From Bacillota bacterium (GTDB taxonomy: Bacteria > Bacillota_I > Bacilli_A > RFN20 > CAG-288), in assembly GCA_036830315.1 (NCBI GenBank), contig DAISOU010000006.1, forward strand, positions 1,212 to 65,211: 64,000 nucleotides of DNA, read 5' to 3'. Positions 53,276 to 62,314 of this stretch are shown one piece after another (the stretch's first letter is position 1; every line of letters begins with the position of its first letter). A program made the position numbers and the translations under genes. The notes beneath the pieces were generated by a model. That model did no database searches. It was not told the origin of the DNA and saw nothing but the letters and a program-made list of their open reading frames with translations.

Positions 53276-54505
53276 ATGAAAGATAAAGAAACAAATAAAA
53301 AAATCAAAGAAAAGCAGAAAAGAATAGTTACTAAGGGCCTGCCTAAGACTCTTGCTCTTTTATTATTGCCTGTTTTTCTTCTGCAGATTCTAGTCGTTTG
53401 TGCTCCCAGCACCTATTTTCTCTCTCTTCTTCTGACCTATTTCATCCTGCCGATGTTCTATACCGTTGAAAAACGTCTTCGTTTTGCCGTTTCCGGAATC
53501 GGAAAAGACAACTTTTCCTATAAAGACGGCTATGACTCCTTTTTTGGCGGAGTTCAAGGCGGAATATTCGGTGTTATCTTTGTCATCATTGAAGCTTTCC
53601 TAGTCGGTATTCTCTGTTATTTCCTCGTCAGCTTAGCCAGTGTCAGCATTATCAACTGCTTCGAAGGCGCTAATGACGTCTATCAGCATATGATTGAGAT
53701 GATGAGCAGCCCCAACGCTTCCATGAATGAATTGATGGAGTATCTGATGAGTGAAGGTCATCTTTTGATTCAGCCTCTGACTGTCATCGTCGGCTTAGTC
53801 GTCTTCATACCGGAATTATTGATCGTCTTCTACTTCCTAAACACTAACCTTGATGACCATTATCTTTGCACGATTGTTCTTCCTGACATCGACAAGAATA
53901 TCTCGGCCTCTCAGGCCAGAAGCATCTGCCGCAGCTCTTTTGGACGACCGATCAGAAATAAGAGACTCAGTATTTCTCTTGGCATGAATTGGCCTTATTA
54001 TCTTGCCTTCACAATCTTCTATGGCGTTATTCTCTACGTCTGCTCTTTTATCACTTCCTCCAATATCATGCTCCTTCCTCTTATCGTCATGATAGCTCCC
54101 ACCATTTCTCTGTTTTTCGGTATGTTCTTAGATTATTTCTGCTTAGGAAACGAATATGCAGTCTTAGAAGTCATCTCGGGTGATCTTGTCAATCTTCTTC
54201 CTCTCCCTATGCAGGAATCTATCAGCCGCACTTATAATGATCCTCACTATAATCACGGCGAGGAATCGGCAATAAGAGGTGCTTTCATTCCGCCAAGATC
54301 TTATGACAGCCACGATTTTGGAAATAACAGTTTCCGTGCAACGGACAGAGGATTCAATCCTAGCGGTTTTGAATCTGAAGGCACTTATCAGCCTAAGGAC
54401 AGCAGCGATGATTCTTCAAAAGAAGACGAACAGCCTACCGGCGTGGTAATAGATTTATCAAGTCAGGAAAAGAAGAAGAATTCTGATAAGGGGGATAAAA
54501 AATGA
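53276..54505 (+). CDS. Polytopic membrane protein of unknown function with a disordered charged C-terminal tail
   Basis: About 6 hydrophobic segments and no motif I recognise. Its stop overlaps the next start (ATGA). Confidence 0.6.
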   Translation: MKDKETNKKIKEKQKRIVTKGLPKTLALLLLPVFLLQILVVCAPSTYFLSLLLTYFILPMFYTVEKRLRFAVSGIGKDNFSYKDGYDSFFGGVQGGIFGVIFVIIEAFLVGILCYFLVSLASVSIINCFEGANDVYQHMIEMMSSPNASMNELMEYLMSEGHLLIQPLTVIVGLVVFIPELLIVFYFLNTNLDDHYLCTIVLPDIDKNISASQARSICRSSFGRPIRNKRLSISLGMNWPYYLAFTIFYGVILYVCSFITSSNIMLLPLIVMIAPTISLFFGMFLDYFCLGNEYAVLEVISGDLVNLLPLPMQESISRTYNDPHYNHGEESAIRGAFIPPRSYDSHDFGNNSFRATDRGFNPSGFESEGTYQPKDSSDDSSKEDEQPTGVVIDLSSQEKKKNSDKGDKK

Positions 54506-57450
54506 TCTCTGTTGGCATCGATATCGGTTCTACTACTATCAAAGCCGTAGTATTAAATGATGATCAAGTCATCTACAAATCATATGAAAGACATTATTCG
54601 AGAATCTCCGAGAAATTAGGAGAAGTTCTCGATGAGCTGAAAAAGGGACCGCTGAATGGAATCAGTGAGGTTCCTCTTTCTTTTTCTGGCTCTGCCGGCA
54701 TGGGAATCTCTGAAAACTGCAAATTTCCTTTTTATCAGGAAGTCTATGCTACCCGTGAAGCGACAAAGAAATATTATCCCAAGACCGATTGTATTATCGA
54801 ATTGGGCGGCGAAGACGCCAAGATTCTTTTCCTCACTGACGGTGTTGAAGTCAGAATGAACGGAACCTGTGCCGGCGGCACAGGTGCTTTCATCGATCAG
54901 ATGGCCTCGCTTTTGAATGTTCCGGTCGAGAAAATAAACGACTTGGCAAAGGGCTATGAGAGAACTTATACTATCGCCTCTCGCTGCGGAGTCTTTGCAA
55001 AAAGCGATATCCAGCCTCTTCTTAATCAGGGCGCCAGAAAAGAAGACGTGGCTGAATCAATTTTCTATTCTGTCGTCAATCAGACCATAGCCGGTCTTGC
55101 CCAAGGCCGTGAGATTACAGGCAATGTCATGTATCTGGGCGGGCCTTTGACTTTCATGTCCGAACTGAGAAATGCTTTTGACAAATCCTTGAAGGTCCAA
55201 GGACTTCTTCCTGAGAATTCATTGTATTTCGTCGCTTTGGGAGCAGCTTTGTTAGCCAAGAACGACAAGCCCATTGTCTTAGACTCGATAATGGATAAAG
55301 TCCGTTCTTACAGAAACAACGAAAACTTCTCCTATATCGATCCTTTATTCAAAGACGAGAATGAATATGATGCTTTTAAAAAGAGACACGACGAAGACAA
55401 AGTCGATATTCTTCCTTTGGCTGATTATGTCGGCCCCCTGTATTTAGGTGTGGATTCAGGTTCTACTACTTTGAAATCAGTACTCATCGATAAAGACTGC
55501 AATATCCGCTATACGTCCTATGTCCCAAATAAAGGAGATCCTATCTCTTTATTGAAAGACATGCTTATCGATATCTACGAAAAGAAGAACAAGGATGCCT
55601 ATATTGCCGGTTCCTCGGCCACAGGCTACGGAGAGGACTTAGCGAAGAACGCCTTTAGCTTTGATCACGGAATCGTTGAGACGATGGCTCATTTCACCGC
55701 TGCCAAGCACTTCCTTCCCGATGTCGAATTCGTCATCGATATCGGCGGTCAGGATATCAAGTGCTTTAGAATCAGAAAAGGTGTCATCGACGATATCTTC
55801 TTGAATGAAGCCTGTTCGTCAGGCTGCGGATCATTTCTGCAGACTTTTGCCTCTTCTTTAGGCTACTCTATTGCTGACTTTGCCAAACTGGCCTTGTTTG
55901 CAAAGAGACCTGTCAACTTAGGAAGCCGCTGCACAGTCTTTATGAATTCCTCTGTCAAGCAGGCTCAGAAAGATGGTGCCACTGTCAACGATATCGCTGC
56001 CGGTCTTGATATCTCAGTTGTCAAGAACGCACTCTATAAAGTCATCCGCTGTGGAAGCAAGGATGAGTTAGGTAAGAGAATTGTGGTTCAGGGCGGAACC
56101 TTCCTTAACGATGCTGTTTTACGTGCGTTTGAAAAAGAACTCGGCGTCGATGTCATCCGATCTAATATTGCCGGTCTGATGGGAGCTTATGGAGCTGCCT
56201 TGGACGCAAAAGACCTTCATCTTGAAGAATCAAAGATGTTAACAGAAGACAAACTCAGAGACTTCAAGAGAAAAGTCAATTCTGTAGTGTGCCAAGGCTG
56301 CAATAATCACTGCAAGCTCACTATCTCGGTCTTCGATGACAAGAGAATATTTATCGGCGGTAACAGATGCGAGAAGCCGGTGACAAAGAAAGCCACTGAT
56401 CTCTCTCTTGATCTTTTTGATTTCAAGAACCGCTATCTGAAGACCTTCAATAACGAAAAAGCCGACCCCTCTCTTTATAAGAGAGGAAAAATCGGTCTTC
56501 CGATGGGCCTTAACTACTATGAGCTTCTTCCTTTCTGGTCCACTTTCTTCACTTCTCTGAAGTTCCAGGTAGTCTTATCCGACCCTTCTTCTGCAAAACT
56601 ATATCATGAAGGACAGATGACTATTCCTTCTGACACTGTCTGTTATCCGGCTAAGCTGATGCATGGCCATGTCATCAACCTTATCGACAAAGGCGTTAAG
56701 ACCATCTTCTATCCCTGCATGTCCTATAACGTTGAGGAAAAAGGAACTGACAATCACTATAATTGCCCAGTCGTCGCTTATTATTCCGAAGTCATCAAAG
56801 CCAATATCAAGGCTTTGAAGACAAACGGAATCCTTTATCTCAGCGACTATGTCAACTTATCGATGAGGAACTTCTTCCCGAAGAAAATCTACGAACAGTT
56901 AGTTCAGTTCTTCCCTGATCTTACCTATTTCGAAGTGAAAAGAGCGTCTGATTTAGCTTATGACGCTTATCGAAAATATGAGATCATCACTTCCAGAAAA
57001 GGCGAAGAGATAATCGAAGATGCCAGAAAACAGCATAAGACAATCATCGTCCTTGCCGGACGTCCGTATCATGTCGATCCTCTTATCAATCACGACATCG
57101 ACAAACTGATCTTAGGCTATGACTGTGCCATTGTCAGCGAAGACGTCATCGCAAGACTTGAAAAGAAACCAGAACCCAGTCATGTTCTCAACCAATGGAC
57201 TTATCATTCACGCCTTTATAAAGCCGCCGAATATGTCAAAGACCAAGAAGACATGCAGTTAGTTCAGCTGGTGTCTTTTGGCTGTGGAGTCGATGCTGTG
57301 ACAAGCGATGAAGTCCGTGATATTCTCGAAAGAAACGGAAAGATCTATACTCAGGTCAAGATAGATGAAGTCACTAATCTTGGCACAGTCAAAATCAGAA
57401 TCCGTTCTCTTTTGGAAGCCTTGAGACGTCAGAAGGAGAGCAAGATATGA
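54502..57450 (+). CDS. Double BcrAD/BadFG-type ATPase (2-hydroxyacyl-CoA dehydratase activase-like) fused to a Cys-rich linker and a dehydratase-like domain
   Basis: Two actin-fold ATPase modules (GIDIGSTTIKAVV and GVDSGSTTLKSVL). Each carries the cluster-ligand contexts (GTCAGGTGAF/SRCGVFAKS and EACSSGCGSF/SRCTVFMNS). These are followed by CQGCNNHC...NRCEKP and a C-terminal domain with VCYPAKL. Confidence 0.85.
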   Translation: MISVGIDIGSTTIKAVVLNDDQVIYKSYERHYSRISEKLGEVLDELKKGPLNGISEVPLSFSGSAGMGISENCKFPFYQEVYATREATKKYYPKTDCIIELGGEDAKILFLTDGVEVRMNGTCAGGTGAFIDQMASLLNVPVEKINDLAKGYERTYTIASRCGVFAKSDIQPLLNQGARKEDVAESIFYSVVNQTIAGLAQGREITGNVMYLGGPLTFMSELRNAFDKSLKVQGLLPENSLYFVALGAALLAKNDKPIVLDSIMDKVRSYRNNENFSYIDPLFKDENEYDAFKKRHDEDKVDILPLADYVGPLYLGVDSGSTTLKSVLIDKDCNIRYTSYVPNKGDPISLLKDMLIDIYEKKNKDAYIAGSSATGYGEDLAKNAFSFDHGIVETMAHFTAAKHFLPDVEFVIDIGGQDIKCFRIRKGVIDDIFLNEACSSGCGSFLQTFASSLGYSIADFAKLALFAKRPVNLGSRCTVFMNSSVKQAQKDGATVNDIAAGLDISVVKNALYKVIRCGSKDELGKRIVVQGGTFLNDAVLRAFEKELGVDVIRSNIAGLMGAYGAALDAKDLHLEESKMLTEDKLRDFKRKVNSVVCQGCNNHCKLTISVFDDKRIFIGGNRCEKPVTKKATDLSLDLFDFKNRYLKTFNNEKADPSLYKRGKIGLPMGLNYYELLPFWSTFFTSLKFQVVLSDPSSAKLYHEGQMTIPSDTVCYPAKLMHGHVINLIDKGVKTIFYPCMSYNVEEKGTDNHYNCPVVAYYSEVIKANIKALKTNGILYLSDYVNLSMRNFFPKKIYEQLVQFFPDLTYFEVKRASDLAYDAYRKYEIITSRKGEEIIEDARKQHKTIIVLAGRPYHVDPLINHDIDKLILGYDCAIVSEDVIARLEKKPEPSHVLNQWTYHSRLYKAAEYVKDQEDMQLVQLVSFGCGVDAVTSDEVRDILERNGKIYTQVKIDEVTNLGTVKIRIRSLLEALRRQKESKI

Positions 57451-58769
57451 GCGAAGAATTAAAGAGAGATAAAACCGGACGTATCATCTTCACCAAGAAG
57501 ATGAAAAAGGATTACACCATTCTTTTCCCCATGATGGCTCCTATTCATTTTGTCATGCTCCAGAAGGTCTTCAATCACTACGGATATCACGCTGAGCTAT
57601 TGACTGATACTTCTCCTGAAATTGCTCAGACCGGTCTAAAGTATATTCAAAACGATATGTGCTATCCGGCTATCTTAAGCTGCGGGCAGATGATTCACGC
57701 TCTTCAAAGCGGCAAGTATGACCTTCATCATGTCGCCTTGATGATTTCTCAGACTGGTGGAGGCTGCCGTGCCTCTAACTATATTTCTCTTTTGAGAAAA
57801 GGACTGAAAAGAGCCGGTCTTGATTACGTTCCGACAGTGAGTGTCAACATGTCTCATTTGGAACCGAATCCTGGCATGAAGATTACTCTGCCTTTGATAA
57901 GAAGAGCTGCTGCTGCTGTTATCTACGGCGACATGCTGATGGTCTTGAAGAATCAGGCTGAGCCTTATGAAATAAACAAAGGCGAAACCATGGAGAAGGT
58001 TCGAAAATGGCAGGACTATCTCTCAGAGCAGATTCTCCACAGTGACGCTTATAAGATGAAGAAAGTAAAAAGAATACTTAATGATATCGCTTCAGATTTT
58101 GACACGATCAAATTAGACGGCAAACCTCGAGTCAAGGTCGGCATTGTCGGCGAAATCTATGTAAAATACGCCGCTCTTGGCAATAACAATCTGGAACAGT
58201 TCTTACGTGATCAAGATTGTGAAGTCAACCTTCCCGGCATGATGAATTTCATCATCTTCAAAGTAGACAACCGTATCGAAGACTGCAATCTTTATGGCGG
58301 ACATCAGATCAAGAAGATGATCTGTTCCTGGCTTTTTGATTTCTGCACCGGTATGCAGAATGCCTTTAATGACGCCATCAAAGAACATTCTCATTTCCAA
58401 GTTCCTTCCACCTACGCCCATGTCAGAGAACTAGTCAAAGGAATCAACGGATATGGAAACAAGATGGGAGAAGGCTGGCTATTAACCGGTGAGATGCTGG
58501 AGTTAGCTGATTCGGGATACGAAAACATTGTCTGCACACAGCCTTTTGGCTGTCTTCCTAATCATATTTCCGGAAAGGGAATGATAAGAAGAGTCAGAGA
58601 AGCTGACAGCAGAGCCAACATTGTCGCTGTTGATTATGATGCCGGTGCTCCGAAAGTCAATCAGGAAAACCGCATCAAACTGATGCTTTCCATCGCTAAG
58701 GAAAACCTTGAAAAAAAAGAAGCTGAGTCTCAGAAGGAGAACTCAGCTGTTAAGGCTGAAGACAAGTAG
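57447..58769 (+). CDS. 2-hydroxyacyl-CoA dehydratase-like / activase-associated subunit
   Basis: MCYPAIL and QTGGGCRASNY motifs. ATGA coupling to the upstream activase-like gene. In other anaerobes this part is, from memory, often fused to the preceding protein. Confidence 0.7.
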   Translation: MSEELKRDKTGRIIFTKKMKKDYTILFPMMAPIHFVMLQKVFNHYGYHAELLTDTSPEIAQTGLKYIQNDMCYPAILSCGQMIHALQSGKYDLHHVALMISQTGGGCRASNYISLLRKGLKRAGLDYVPTVSVNMSHLEPNPGMKITLPLIRRAAAAVIYGDMLMVLKNQAEPYEINKGETMEKVRKWQDYLSEQILHSDAYKMKKVKRILNDIASDFDTIKLDGKPRVKVGIVGEIYVKYAALGNNNLEQFLRDQDCEVNLPGMMNFIIFKVDNRIEDCNLYGGHQIKKMICSWLFDFCTGMQNAFNDAIKEHSHFQVPSTYAHVRELVKGINGYGNKMGEGWLLTGEMLELADSGYENIVCTQPFGCLPNHISGKGMIRRVREADSRANIVAVDYDAGAPKVNQENRIKLMLSIAKENLEKKEAESQKENSAVKAEDK

Positions 58770-59953: not shown

Positions 59954-60474
59954 GATATTTTCCTTTATTAATTAATCGAAAAGGAATATTTGGTGTAAGC
60001 AACATTAGGTATAAAAAAGCTTTATGAACGATATAAGCACAAAGATAAATCGATGGACTGGTTTCTGCAAAAGTTCTTTTCTGTTCCTTCTTGTCTGTTT
60101 TTAGTATGGGACGGAAAACTATGATAGACAAGCTGTAATTAGAAAATACTATGTTTTATCCATGTCTGGTTTATATGTTGAAAACTATGTTTTCTTTCAA
60201 GTATTTATTTTAAAAAAGGAAGTTTTCAGTGCTTTTTAAAAAAATTTTTTTCATTAACGAGATGAGACTGGATATCATACAGAACGACAAAACTATTACA
60301 AAGAAATATAACTGAGATTTTCAGGAGTCTTATCCCTTTCACGGATCTGATTACTTCACTGATTAGGGATTACAGACTGAGGAACACGGTTAAGTGAAAG
60401 ATGCGGACAAGTATTGGTTTCAGTTTGTTTTTTATAGACAATATTATAGAAATAGATTTATTGAATAGGTGTTA

Positions 60475-60530
60475 TTGAAGTATTGAAGTAACTATCGAAG
60501 TTCATAGAAGTAATACTTCTAAATTACTTC
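60475..60530. repeat. 56-bp direct repeat, copy 1 (upstream of the AlbA_2 gene)
   Basis: TTGAAGTATTGAAGTAACTATCGAAGTTCATAGAAGTAATACTTCTAAATTACTTC. It is 53/56 identical to 62032-62087. It contains four direct GAAGT units and the inverted repeat AGAAGT-N3-ACTTCT. Confidence 0.9.
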
Positions 60531-60551
60531 GTTTTATGCTATTATCATAAT
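60524..60551 (+). promoter_or_regulatory. Candidate promoter of the AlbA_2 gene, with the -35 inside repeat copy 1
   Basis: TTACTT (60524-60529), 16-nt spacer, CATAAT (60546-60551). Confidence 0.35.
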
Positions 60552-60565
60552 ATGAAGCGGAGGTT

Positions 60566-62035
60566 ATGGCAATGACATTTGAAGAATTATTTCCTGATGC
60601 TACTTTACAGTCCTTTGATGTTGAGTTTAAAGGATTTCTTGGCAGTGGTCCAGATGAAAAAGGATTAAGCAGTGAAGTCGGATGGCTGAAAACACTGGTG
60701 GCTTTTGCTAATGGCGCTGGCGGGTCTTTATTTGTAGGAGTTGAAAATAAAACCCATAAGATTGTGGCACTTGACCTTAATAGTGCCGATAAACAAATTC
60801 AATTGGTATACCGGACCTGCAAACAGAGAACAGACCCATTTATCGAACCTCTCATTAGTAAAATTGATATTCCATTTCCAAATGAAACGAGGGTTGTTAT
60901 CAGAATTGAGATTAAGCCTTCATCTCTGTTGCCGGTGCTTCTTAAAGACAGGGGCGGGTCTTTTGCTCTTGTCAGGAGATTTGGCCAAACTGATCTAGCT
61001 ACCTCGGAAGAACTACGAGAATTGGCACAAAAGAGCTCTGATATTTCCTTTGATGAATATCCAACTAAGGAATTGTTTAGCAATAACGATTTTACTTCTT
61101 TCTTCGAGTCTTATCAGGAACATAATGGAAGTCCTTTGGATCCAAAATATTTAATCAGTAAAGGTTTTATGGACATAAATGGATATCTTAGCCGAGGTGC
61201 TTTGCTTTTTAAAGACGAATGCAAAGATCCCAAAACAATGATATCTATTGTTAAATACCCTGGTATAGATAAAGGGTCCAGTGAATTGCTTTATGTGGAA
61301 AAACTAATTGGACCTATTCATACTTTGATATTGAAGGCGGCCAATATCATTCAAGCTCAATCTGTAAATGGTATTAAAAAAACCTCCTCAGGCGAGAAAA
61401 AAATCTTTTCTTTTCCTGCCAGATCTCTTTTGGAAGGAATTGCCAATGCGTTTGCTCATCGAAACTATTGGATTGGCGGTTCTCAGATTCAAATATCTAT
61501 TTTCAAGGATCGAGTGGAAATTGTTTCCCCGGGGTCTTTGTTGGGTCTTCAAAATCTTCCCAAGGATAAGGATATTAAAAACATCAAACCTCGCCATCGT
61601 AACGAAGTCATTTGCAATGCCCTTTCTCTTTTAGGCTTGATTCAAGGTTTAGGAACTGGTTTTGACAAAATTGCCGATGACTATCGAATGGCTGATGAAG
61701 CTCATCAGCCCTATGTAGAGAGTTCTCCATCCTCCTTCTCTTTGACACTCCCAGATCTTATGTATGCCCAAGGTGTAGTCGGAACAGATAATCCTGCTCC
61801 TGCCATTGCTCTTATCGGAGCCGGGCAATTAAGTGCTAAAGAAAACCAAGTTCTCTCTTTTTGTTACCCTAGAAAACGAACCTTGAAAGAAATAGCTCAA
61901 TTTCTTGGAATTTCAGTATCTTCATATTTGAAGGGCGAACTACTTGGGGGCCTGATAACAAAAGGTTATCTTATTCAAAGTGACCAAAGACCAGCCTCCT
62001 ATTTGACTTCTAGAGAAAAGGTCTATTTGATTTGA
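60566..62035 (+). CDS. Schlafen/AlbA_2 domain plus HATPase_c_4 domain protein with a C-terminal wHTH-like region (often annotated as a RecG-like putative regulator)
   Basis: AlbA_2-like FDVEFKG...EVGWLKTLVAFANGAGGSLFVGVENKTHKIVAL. HATPase_c_4-like LLEGIANAFAHRNYWIGGSQIQISIFKDRVEIVSPGSL. GGAGG at 60559-60563 favours the second ATG at 60572. Confidence 0.8.
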   Translation: MAMTFEELFPDATLQSFDVEFKGFLGSGPDEKGLSSEVGWLKTLVAFANGAGGSLFVGVENKTHKIVALDLNSADKQIQLVYRTCKQRTDPFIEPLISKIDIPFPNETRVVIRIEIKPSSLLPVLLKDRGGSFALVRRFGQTDLATSEELRELAQKSSDISFDEYPTKELFSNNDFTSFFESYQEHNGSPLDPKYLISKGFMDINGYLSRGALLFKDECKDPKTMISIVKYPGIDKGSSELLYVEKLIGPIHTLILKAANIIQAQSVNGIKKTSSGEKKIFSFPARSLLEGIANAFAHRNYWIGGSQIQISIFKDRVEIVSPGSLLGLQNLPKDKDIKNIKPRHRNEVICNALSLLGLIQGLGTGFDKIADDYRMADEAHQPYVESSPSSFSLTLPDLMYAQGVVGTDNPAPAIALIGAGQLSAKENQVLSFCYPRKRTLKEIAQFLGISVSSYLKGELLGGLITKGYLIQSDQRPASYLTSREKVYLI

Positions 62036-62087
62036 AGTATTGAAGTAACTATCGAAGTTAATAGAAGTAATACTTCTAAACAACTTC
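62032..62087. repeat. 56-bp direct repeat, copy 2 (starts at the stop codon of the AlbA_2 gene)
   Basis: TTGAAGTATTGAAGTAACTATCGAAGTTAATAGAAGTAATACTTCTAAACAACTTC. See copy 1. Confidence 0.9.
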
Positions 62088-62186
62088 TATATTGTTGATT
62101 GGTCTTTGTTTTAAAGCGTTTTGTCCTATGCTGTTTTTAGGATTAACACTCTAGGTTCTTAACTAGATAGGCTTGTTTTTGGAATG

Positions 62187-62230
62187 AAACAGTTCTTTTC
62201 GATACTGATTCGAGACGGAAAGAACTGTTT
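62187..62230 (+). other. 12-bp perfect stem-loop between the cassette and guaA
   Basis: AAACAGTTCTTT-N20-AAAGAACTGTTT. The loop contains an inner TCGA...TCGA pairing. It is followed by ATCATCCTTTTATT, a weak U-tract. Confidence 0.5.
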
Positions 62231-62314
62231 ATCATCCTTTTATTCTGATACTTTCGTTTTAGGGTTTATCTCTATCTCTTTTTCGGCTATAATTCTTTCT
62301 TGAGGTAAAAAAAC

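Follow-up and report, generated by a model that had tools for sequence, protein, structure and literature searches.

Paired repeat arrays around a Schlafen-GHKL ATPase-winged helix gene upstream of guaA: putative cognate sites of the encoded protein in a horizontally moving cassette

The locus analysed in this study lies near the downstream end of the window, by which we mean the whole 64,000-nucleotide (nt) stretch of contig DAISOU010000006.1 (assembly GCA_036830315.1, a Bacillota bacterium). It holds one gene, coding for a protein in which a Schlafen nuclease-type domain, a GHKL-type ATPase and a winged helix-turn-helix (wHTH) are joined, and this gene is bracketed by two direct repeats of 56 nt. 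The initial annotation had drawn attention to the pair and proposed that the repeats are either the attL/attR-like marks of an excisable cassette or paired operators bound by the encoded protein. The features of the locus are listed below.

59998-62257, no strand: segment without a detectable counterpart in the two nearest species (homology comparison)
60351-60357, plus strand: lone extra unit TTACTTC, 118 nt 5' of copy 1 (sequence reading)
60475-60530, plus strand: upstream array, copy 1, with the units TTGAAGTA, TTGAAGTA, TCGAAGTT, TAGAAGTA, inverted TACTTCTA and TTACTTC
60524-60563, plus strand: candidate promoter and ribosome-binding site (RBS), with the -35-like TTACTT at 60524-60529 and GGAGG at 60559-60563 (sequence reading)
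60566-62035, plus strand: Schlafen-GHKL ATPase-wHTH gene, 489 amino acids (aa) from ATG 60566
60617-60961, plus strand: SLFN_AlbA_2 (Schlafen nuclease-type) domain, residues 18-132, Pfam PF04326, E 1.2e-13
61478-61750, plus strand: HATPase_c_4 (GHKL-type ATPase) domain, residues 305-395, Pfam PF13749, E 1.3e-16
61835-62008, plus strand: C-terminal wHTH, with helices at residues 424-432, 440-447 and 453-465 and wing strands at 469-471 and 478-481
62032-62087, plus strand: downstream array, copy 2, starting 1 base before the TGA stop, with the palindrome at 62062-62078
62187-62230, plus strand: hairpin with 15-nt arms (93% complementary), a 14-nt loop and a weak T-run after it (inverted-repeat listing)

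The two repeats are identical at 53 of 56 positions and lie 1557 nt apart from start to start. They flank exactly one gene, as first described: the open reading frame (ORF) at 60566-62035 is the only one between them, and copy 2 begins one base ahead of its TGA stop codon (62033-62035), which falls inside the first unit of the repeat. Each copy contains GAAGT four times (at 60477, 60485, 60497 and 60507 in copy 1) and ACTTC twice (60515 and 60526), together with a perfect 17-nt palindrome, TAGAAGTAATACTTCTA, at 60505-60521 and 62062-62078. The four direct units, the inverted repeat and the further TTACTTC at 60351-60357 were all present as previously reported. The three mismatches between the copies are found at 60503 and 60524-60525. 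The last unit of copy 1 overlaps the -35-like TTACTT (60524-60529), and in copy 2 this hexamer is altered to CAACTT.

A 28-nt core of the repeat gave two matches in the window and none in 100 shuffles. The whole assembly (G000; 1.68 Mb, 60 contigs, 41% G+C) was then searched, and the two copies proved to be the only ones in the genome. In a comparison of upstream with downstream flanks across the genome's 804 ORFs of 250 aa or more, the Schlafen gene scored 45 and the runner-up 17, and it was the only one with a flank match of at least 20. The repeat pair is therefore confirmed as real and far beyond chance. The generic repetitive extragenic palindromic (REP) element, which the initial annotation had named as the finding that would speak against its proposals, is excluded by the genome-wide count of two. 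A REP-like or bacterial interspersed mosaic element (BIME)-like identity was likewise rejected, as other matches to the pattern stayed at the level of a reversed-pattern control; one related array was found in the 44 other genomes of the genus, in G010.

It is plausible, from the sequence, that the -35 of the gene's candidate promoter lies inside copy 1. The candidates for the -10 are an extended TGcTATTAT at 60537-60545 and a CATAAT at 60546-60551. The true start is likely ATG 60572, giving 487 aa, because it lies 8 nt after the RBS GGAGG and because public gene calls give the same length. The hairpin at 62187-62230 may terminate the Schlafen transcript, and copy 2 would then fall in the 3' untranslated region (UTR). 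It is located 5' of guaA within the lineage-specific segment and is not conserved in G012 or G042, the two nearest species. A consensus scan for promoters and terminators listed neither the candidate promoter nor this hairpin. On the other side of the gene, about 520 nt (59954-60474) between a 133-aa membrane-protein gene and copy 1 show no convincing ORF; most of this stretch, from about 59998 on, has no counterpart in the nearest species, and it holds the lone TTACTTC.

The AlbA_2, HATPase_c_4 and C-terminal helix-turn-helix (HTH) domains assigned in the initial annotation were confirmed by the Pfam search, which recognised the last of these as a Sigma70_r4-like HTH at residues 421-452 (E 4.5e-6). 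A conserved box with E290 and N294 lies just upstream of the HATPase_c_4 domain, and E290, N294, H298 and G365 were invariant across 78 aligned sequences. An AlphaFold2 model built from this alignment reached a mean predicted local distance difference test (pLDDT) score of 92.9, with block means of 88-97 in the wHTH (residues 424-481), in which helix 453-465 is the predicted recognition helix. Foldseek matched the model over its full length to PDB 3LMM (C. diphtheriae DIP2311; E 2e-18), and further to the nuclease N-domains of human SLFN14, 5, 11 and 13 (E 6e-6 to 2e-3), to histidine-kinase catalytic domains and to the winged-helix proteins Zalpha, ZitR and RosR. A sequence search of solved structures gave no match for the protein, no NCBIfam model matched it, and PADLOC returned weak partial matches to Schlafen-bearing Argonaute-associated models (E 6e-4).

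The protein is a prokaryotic Schlafen (pSlfn) of the HisKinase(GHKL)-HTH class, also termed 'Schlatpase-HTH' or COG2865. It shares the domain order of this class, from Schlafen/AlbA_2 through the GHKL ATPase to the wHTH, along with the fold seen in 3LMM and in the human SLFN N-domains. The class accounts for 19.2% of prokaryotic Schlafens (Taboada et al., Nat Microbiol 2026, PMC13056530), whose nucleases are reported to be anti-phage tRNases (PMC13056530). In that study, two of seven expressed systems are reported to have conferred defence, the only ones named in that role being an Ig-like fusion (RorSlfn5) and a DUF262 fusion; how the HisKinase constructs performed is not stated in the portion of the PMC13056530 text available, and the HTH is given no function (PMC13056530). 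The 'Schlatpase' supradomain with a C-terminal HTH is the same class, and the Schlatpase module is reported to drive ATP-dependent tetramerisation in SLFN-pAgo (bioRxiv 10.64898/2026.05.29.728809).

Relatives of the gene were examined at 80 loci fetched from a species-representative genome collection, with sources including Treponema, Lachnospiraceae, Bacilli, Selenomonas and Coriobacteriaceae; 82 family loci entered the upstream test. An upstream array was called where one 6-mer occurred at least four times within 160 nt 5' of the start. This was the case for 67 of the 82 family loci as against 32 of 831 control ORFs of this genome, and with at least five occurrences the numbers were 56 of 82 and 3 of 831. 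The motifs fell into classes by protein clade, namely TTGAAGT, GTGAAGT, CTAGAAA and AACATT. Among the family loci, 151 of 188 pairs of neighbouring GAAGT units on the same strand showed a spacing of 11-12 nt, and 234 units were oriented with the gene versus 51 against it.

Within the genus, the best homologues were only 33-42% identical to the Schlafen protein. Nine of the ten same-genus homologues had flank repeats of their own (39-120 nt, 85-100% identical within a locus), which differed in sequence from locus to locus; their units were GTGAAGT, CCTAGAAA, TTTCTAGA, CTAGAAG, TTGAAGTA, ATTGAAGT or ACTTAGTAA. Outside the genus, a downstream copy scoring at least 20 was found at 14 of 67 loci, about 12 of them of the iteron type. 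The downstream copy began between -11 and +18 nt from the stop codon in 17 of the 20 bracketed loci. The layout of arrays thus recurs, with varying motifs, around relatives in many gut bacteria. From this survey, the universal feature is a helically phased array close to the promoter; a second array at the stop codon is often added to it.

The array and the gene travel together across genomes and phyla, and the Schlafen gene encodes the only protein of the cassette. Because the array travels with the gene, the encoded winged helix is proposed to read it, and this is the main argument for what follows. We consider it probable, though well short of certain, that the winged helix of the encoded Schlafen recognises a cognate site array of which the 56-nt repeats are two copies, acting as operator or docking arrays in a self-contained, horizontally moving accessory cassette. 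Paired operators are therefore the better supported of the two options offered in the initial annotation, with phased arrays at promoters, the joint travel of motif and gene and the constraint on the units now added to it; the binding and the looping are steps that we infer.

The winged helix would read the GAAGT units, of which four are direct, one forms a head-to-head pair and one more is inverted. The upstream array is placed on the -35 region, so that its occupancy would set the transcription of the gene itself. Such autoregulation would be independent of the host, an advantage where the gene for a potentially toxic RNase passes from host to host. From the stop codon on, the downstream array may serve as a second docking site, and an ATP-driven oligomer could bridge both arrays, with the 1.56-kb gene forming the loop between them. 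A pair of direct repeats would incidentally also ease deletion or duplication of the gene by recombination, as gene-less solo arrays and a tandem paralogue found elsewhere (described below) suggest.

Several points weigh against this interpretation. Every step from the array to its binding by the encoded protein is one that we infer from sequence. Units 1 and 2 of copy 1 are spaced by 8 nt, outside the 11-12-nt phase of the family. Outside the genus, a downstream copy is missing from most relatives and is therefore not required for function. At L145 (G049:C99:2380-3960), whose Schlafen-HTH gene is 81% identical to that of L006, the array is present only after the stop codon and the 300 nt upstream contain no CTAGAAA unit. 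The near-identity of the spacers within a locus is also expected from a recent duplication. A co-variation test placed wHTH columns at 3 of the top 20 against 2.9 expected, which is no specific enrichment; the motif class was predicted about equally by columns throughout the protein and tracks the whole-protein phylogeny, which confounds the test. A pairing of Y455 or H with GAAGT or GAAA was broken by one exception, L048.

This missing co-variation with the winged helix is also what would be expected if the arrays were read by a host transcription factor, or acted at the RNA level as a 5' or 3' UTR signal; the AGAAGT-N3-ACTTCT palindrome, for example, might fold into a hairpin of 6 bp in the 3' UTR. 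We regard such a reader as very improbable. A host factor cannot explain the arrays because the motif differs between paralogues in one genus and follows the gene into other phyla. Copy 1 precedes the -10 and is unlikely to be transcribed, no match to an Rfam family was obtained at E <=1 in or around the repeats, and the 11-12-nt phase of the direct units is a signature of one face of the DNA.

The differences between copies were examined at the 20 bracketed loci. Mismatches affected 4.3% of positions in units versus 8.9% in spacers (odds ratio 0.45, p = 0.005) under a deliberately conservative definition of the unit, and a lenient definition gave a much stronger contrast. The motif units are largely spared such differences, which points to selection. 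At L006, L008 and L026, whose proteins are 65-80% identical, the arrays are 95-98% identical within a locus and 69-77% between loci, and the array spacers have diverged between loci. The homogeneity of the pair reflects concerted evolution or repeated regeneration.

These results also bear on the suggestion that only the upstream array matters and that the downstream copy is a functionless by-product, left by unequal crossing-over or by tandem duplication followed by loss of the second gene. Tandem cassettes do occur, since L011 (G021:C123; 967-1127 and 2504-2661), in which the 72-nt arrays are 100% identical, carries the 3' end of a second paralogue directly 5' of its upstream array: the 65 nt just outside that array are 78% identical to the gene's own 3' end, which suggests head-to-tail tandem paralogous cassettes on a short contig. 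The lack of a downstream copy in most relatives would fit a by-product as well, and the part of copy 2 that is altered in the window is the -35-like hexamer. However, 17 of 20 loci have the downstream copy beginning at the stop codon, which random deletions would not bring about, and a by-product would not be expected to spare the motif units from mismatches. Three cassettes with proteins only 65-80% identical all keep their pair homogenised, and the window shows no second promoter or gene remnant after copy 2. A by-product origin is in our view decidedly unlikely.

The surroundings of guaA were compared within the genus, where GuaA homologues occur in 40 of the 45 genomes. A Schlafen gene within 1.5 kb of guaA was absent from all 29 other genomes in which this locus was examined, which bears out the earlier description of an accessory islet between conserved genes. 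In the nearest species, with guaA 80-81% identical, the site is empty: G012 has the 133-aa gene, 443 nt and guaA, and G042 has a 252-aa gene, 184 nt and guaA. The window stops matching G012 near 59997 and is homologous again to both G012 and G042 from 62258 on. The intervening segment (59998-62257) comprises a 477-nt ORF-poor leader, the cassette and a 170-nt trailer and is wider than the repeats. Array, promoter and gene, with or without a second array, form a self-contained accessory cassette, which this lineage gained at a site flanked by the 133-aa membrane-protein gene and guaA. The empty site with a single repeat copy that the initial annotation had envisaged was found in part, as the sites are empty but neither holds a copy; the repeats therefore came with the cassette and are not a duplicated target. 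A target-site duplication or att scar was rejected on the same ground.

An exact pattern search of public metagenomes returned a same-species contig carrying both copies and nothing else, the contigs of the species from other samples (L023, L024) had the identical arrangement, and an exact look-up of GuaA gave only contigs arranged in the same way. The exact pattern search for an empty or solo site in the genome collection gave no match, as did the exact-protein look-up of the Schlafen protein (P0001).

Elsewhere, the nucleotide homology shared by related loci sets in about 140-177 nt 5' of the start, where the array region begins on its outer side. Its other limit is the stop codon (+0 to +11) or, in bracketed loci, the far end of the downstream array at +91 to +101. 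The flanks of five loci gave no tblastx match and are thus unrelated even as protein. A 1.6-kb cassette that is 96% identical was found at L051 (413-2032) and L056 (1339-2958), in unrelated Clostridia/Lachnospiraceae metagenome-assembled genome contexts. It consists of a leader of about 60 nt, a TTGAAGT array, the promoter and the gene; homology ends 9 nt past the stop, and no terminal repeats or target duplication were evident at its ends. A second copy is therefore not needed for transfer, since these cassettes moved without one. Carriage on plasmids (3 records) or phages (6 unannotated faecal contigs labelled as phage) was rare, and a plasmid or phage origin accordingly finds no support.

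Arrays without a gene were also identified. The palindrome TAGAAGTAATACTTCTA recurs in the other genomes of the genus only at G010:C2:7380-7480 (L016 at about 1490-1590; L150), where it is accompanied by two related units with a spacing of about 32 nt. This array lies between ORFs of 269 and 114 aa with no Schlafen homologue within 2.4 kb, and probably remains from a cassette of the window's type that has been lost. Complete gene-less arrays of the CTAGAAA class were found at L146 (G057:C1:121480-121590), L147 (G041:C16), L148 (G010:C9) and L149 (G004:C9). The last three represent one syntenic site, with flanks 79-88% identical and arrays decaying unit by unit; at the same site, G048, the genome closest to G010 there, has no array. 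G010 and G004 carry no cognate gene elsewhere in the genome, and a search of 30 genomes of the genus found none with a gene at the syntenic site. The solo arrays may have arisen by array-with-array deletion.

Such solo arrays (in G010, G041, G004 and G057) would also be expected if the repeats were first of all the working, att-like ends of a mobile or excisable cassette and operators only second. In one form of this explanation, a circular unit of array, promoter and gene would integrate and excise at a resident array by array-with-array recombination; in another, a copying mechanism would regenerate the terminal direct repeat at each transfer, as in a long terminal repeat (LTR)-like element. 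The absence of the cassette at the syntenic site in 29 same-genus genomes fits well, as do the related cassettes with both arrays in unrelated contexts whose homology stops at the array edges, an array identity far higher within than between loci, and a copy 2 that abuts the stop codon as in a compact circle. Against this stand the empty sites of G012 and G042 without a solo copy, a lineage-specific segment that exceeds the repeats, the L051 and L056 cassettes that are 96% identical in unrelated contexts without a downstream copy, the lack of a recombinase in the cassette, and the lack of an occupied counterpart of the solo-array site. We judge mobile ends to be unlikely, with some chance left to them. 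What stands of the attL/attR-like proposal is an inserted accessory cassette; excision at the repeats does not follow from it, given the missing solo copy, the missing recombinase and relatives that move without a downstream copy.

Two other mobile-element identities were rejected. An integron gene cassette (attC) does not fit, as the same array is found on both sides, the direct units are phased, and the arrays are gene-specific and not shared within a genome; no integrase was found among the neighbour proteins scanned. An iteron plasmid replicon does not fit a protein whose domains are Schlafen, GHKL and wHTH, with no match to a Rep family.

A more speculative model, to which we give a slim chance, would make the arrays and the Schlatpase-HTH a mobile or amplifiable single-gene unit without a recombinase. 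The protein would synapse its private arrays, and exchange between them would excise the gene, re-insert it at orphan 'landing-pad' arrays, or duplicate or delete it. If true, this array exchange would explain why the copies are 95-98% alike while orthologous cassettes diverge, and it would also explain why homology ends at the array edges and why gene-less solo arrays persist across species.

For the preferred reading, in which the arrays are cognate sites of the winged helix, three known systems offer partial parallels. In phage lambda, the gene for the repressor CI has an operator array on either side, OL and OR, separated by about 2 kb, and long-range looping tunes its autoregulation. The likeness lies in two multi-site arrays that flank a gene, one of them overlapping the gene's own promoter. 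Lambda, however, has palindromic 17-mers with diverged spacers, whereas near-identical phased direct repeats are present here, and CI is a small dedicated repressor, in contrast to a nuclease-ATPase fusion for which looping is conjectural. In the incC-repA-incA region of P1, the gene for a winged-helix protein is flanked on each side by the helically phased direct repeats that this protein binds; the arrays engage in handcuffing, and the one overlapping the promoter autorepresses. The resemblance is one of geometry only, as the present protein has no homology to Rep initiators, the locus shows no sign of an origin, and it is chromosomal and single-copy. The C proteins and C-boxes of restriction-modification systems provide a mobile defence cassette with its own HTH and operator, which time a dangerous enzyme independently of the host. 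The cassette described here similarly carries its own HTH and a putative operator; it differs in the fusion of the HTH to the effector, in an operator that would consist of several phased units, and in the further copy after the gene.

The catalytic motif of Schlafen RNases is defined as E-x4-(E/D)-x-K (PMC13056530), and the family here shows E-x4-E-x-K. The window allele departs from both the definition and the class with Q15-x4-E20-x-K22, just ahead of the SLFN_AlbA_2 domain, in which glutamine takes the place of the first catalytic glutamate; codon 15 is CAG (60608-60610), and at least 90% of the 78 aligned relatives have Glu. The nuclease of this allele may therefore be weakened or inactive, and its activity is doubtful, while the assignment to the Schlafen family stands by fold and domains despite Q15. 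Strain L024 (JGI contig Ga0172377_10006693), 99.3% identical, has E15 (GAG) through one base change at 60608; it also has Ser at the nearly invariant R286. Between the window and L024, 10 synonymous and 5 non-synonymous changes were counted in the gene and none in either repeat, and the gene is under purifying selection overall.

About a fifth of bacterial Schlafens belong to the Schlafen-GHKL-HTH type, one of their commonest classes (PMC13056530), and neither PMC13056530 nor bioRxiv 10.64898/2026.05.29.728809 describes a role for the HTH or a cis element; the terms 'direct repeat' and 'operator' are absent from both. The protein class and the general logic, an HTH with its own operator and distant operator pairs, are already known. 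The family-wide cognate arrays and the bracketing layout are described in neither of the two papers. A private phased array, often duplicated at the stop codon, offers a testable handle on the control of a potentially toxic RNase-ATPase, and it bears on what the DNA-binding tail reads and why these genes are gained and lost so readily. The array is also a simple sequence signature for annotating cassettes and their relics, the solo arrays. Specific to the window are the polymorphism of the catalytic Glu-to-Gln allele within a species and the clean empty sites in sister species.

Some further features of the locus and its relatives were recorded. Upstream of the islet, 54502-58769 encodes a 982-aa protein of the BcrAD_BadFG/DUF2229 CoA-enzyme-activase type and a 440-aa DUF2229-like protein; as both are conserved beside guaA in G042, the variable spot is bounded by the 252-aa gene and guaA. 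In the CTAGAAA class (L005, L006, L008, L026 and L145-L148), the spacers between unit clusters are about 45 nt long and divergent between loci, with a TTATCG-like core followed by an AT-rich run that is kept and may be a second conserved element. A homologue is also present in a cultured carrier, Butyrivibrio proteoclasticus B316, on pCY360 (L181; NC_014389.1, 51592-58034). This gene, BPR_RS20465, is annotated as 'ATP-binding protein' and adjoins a short tyrosine-recombinase gene; it has a terminator hairpin and no downstream array, and seven phased TGAAGT units precede it up to the RBS.

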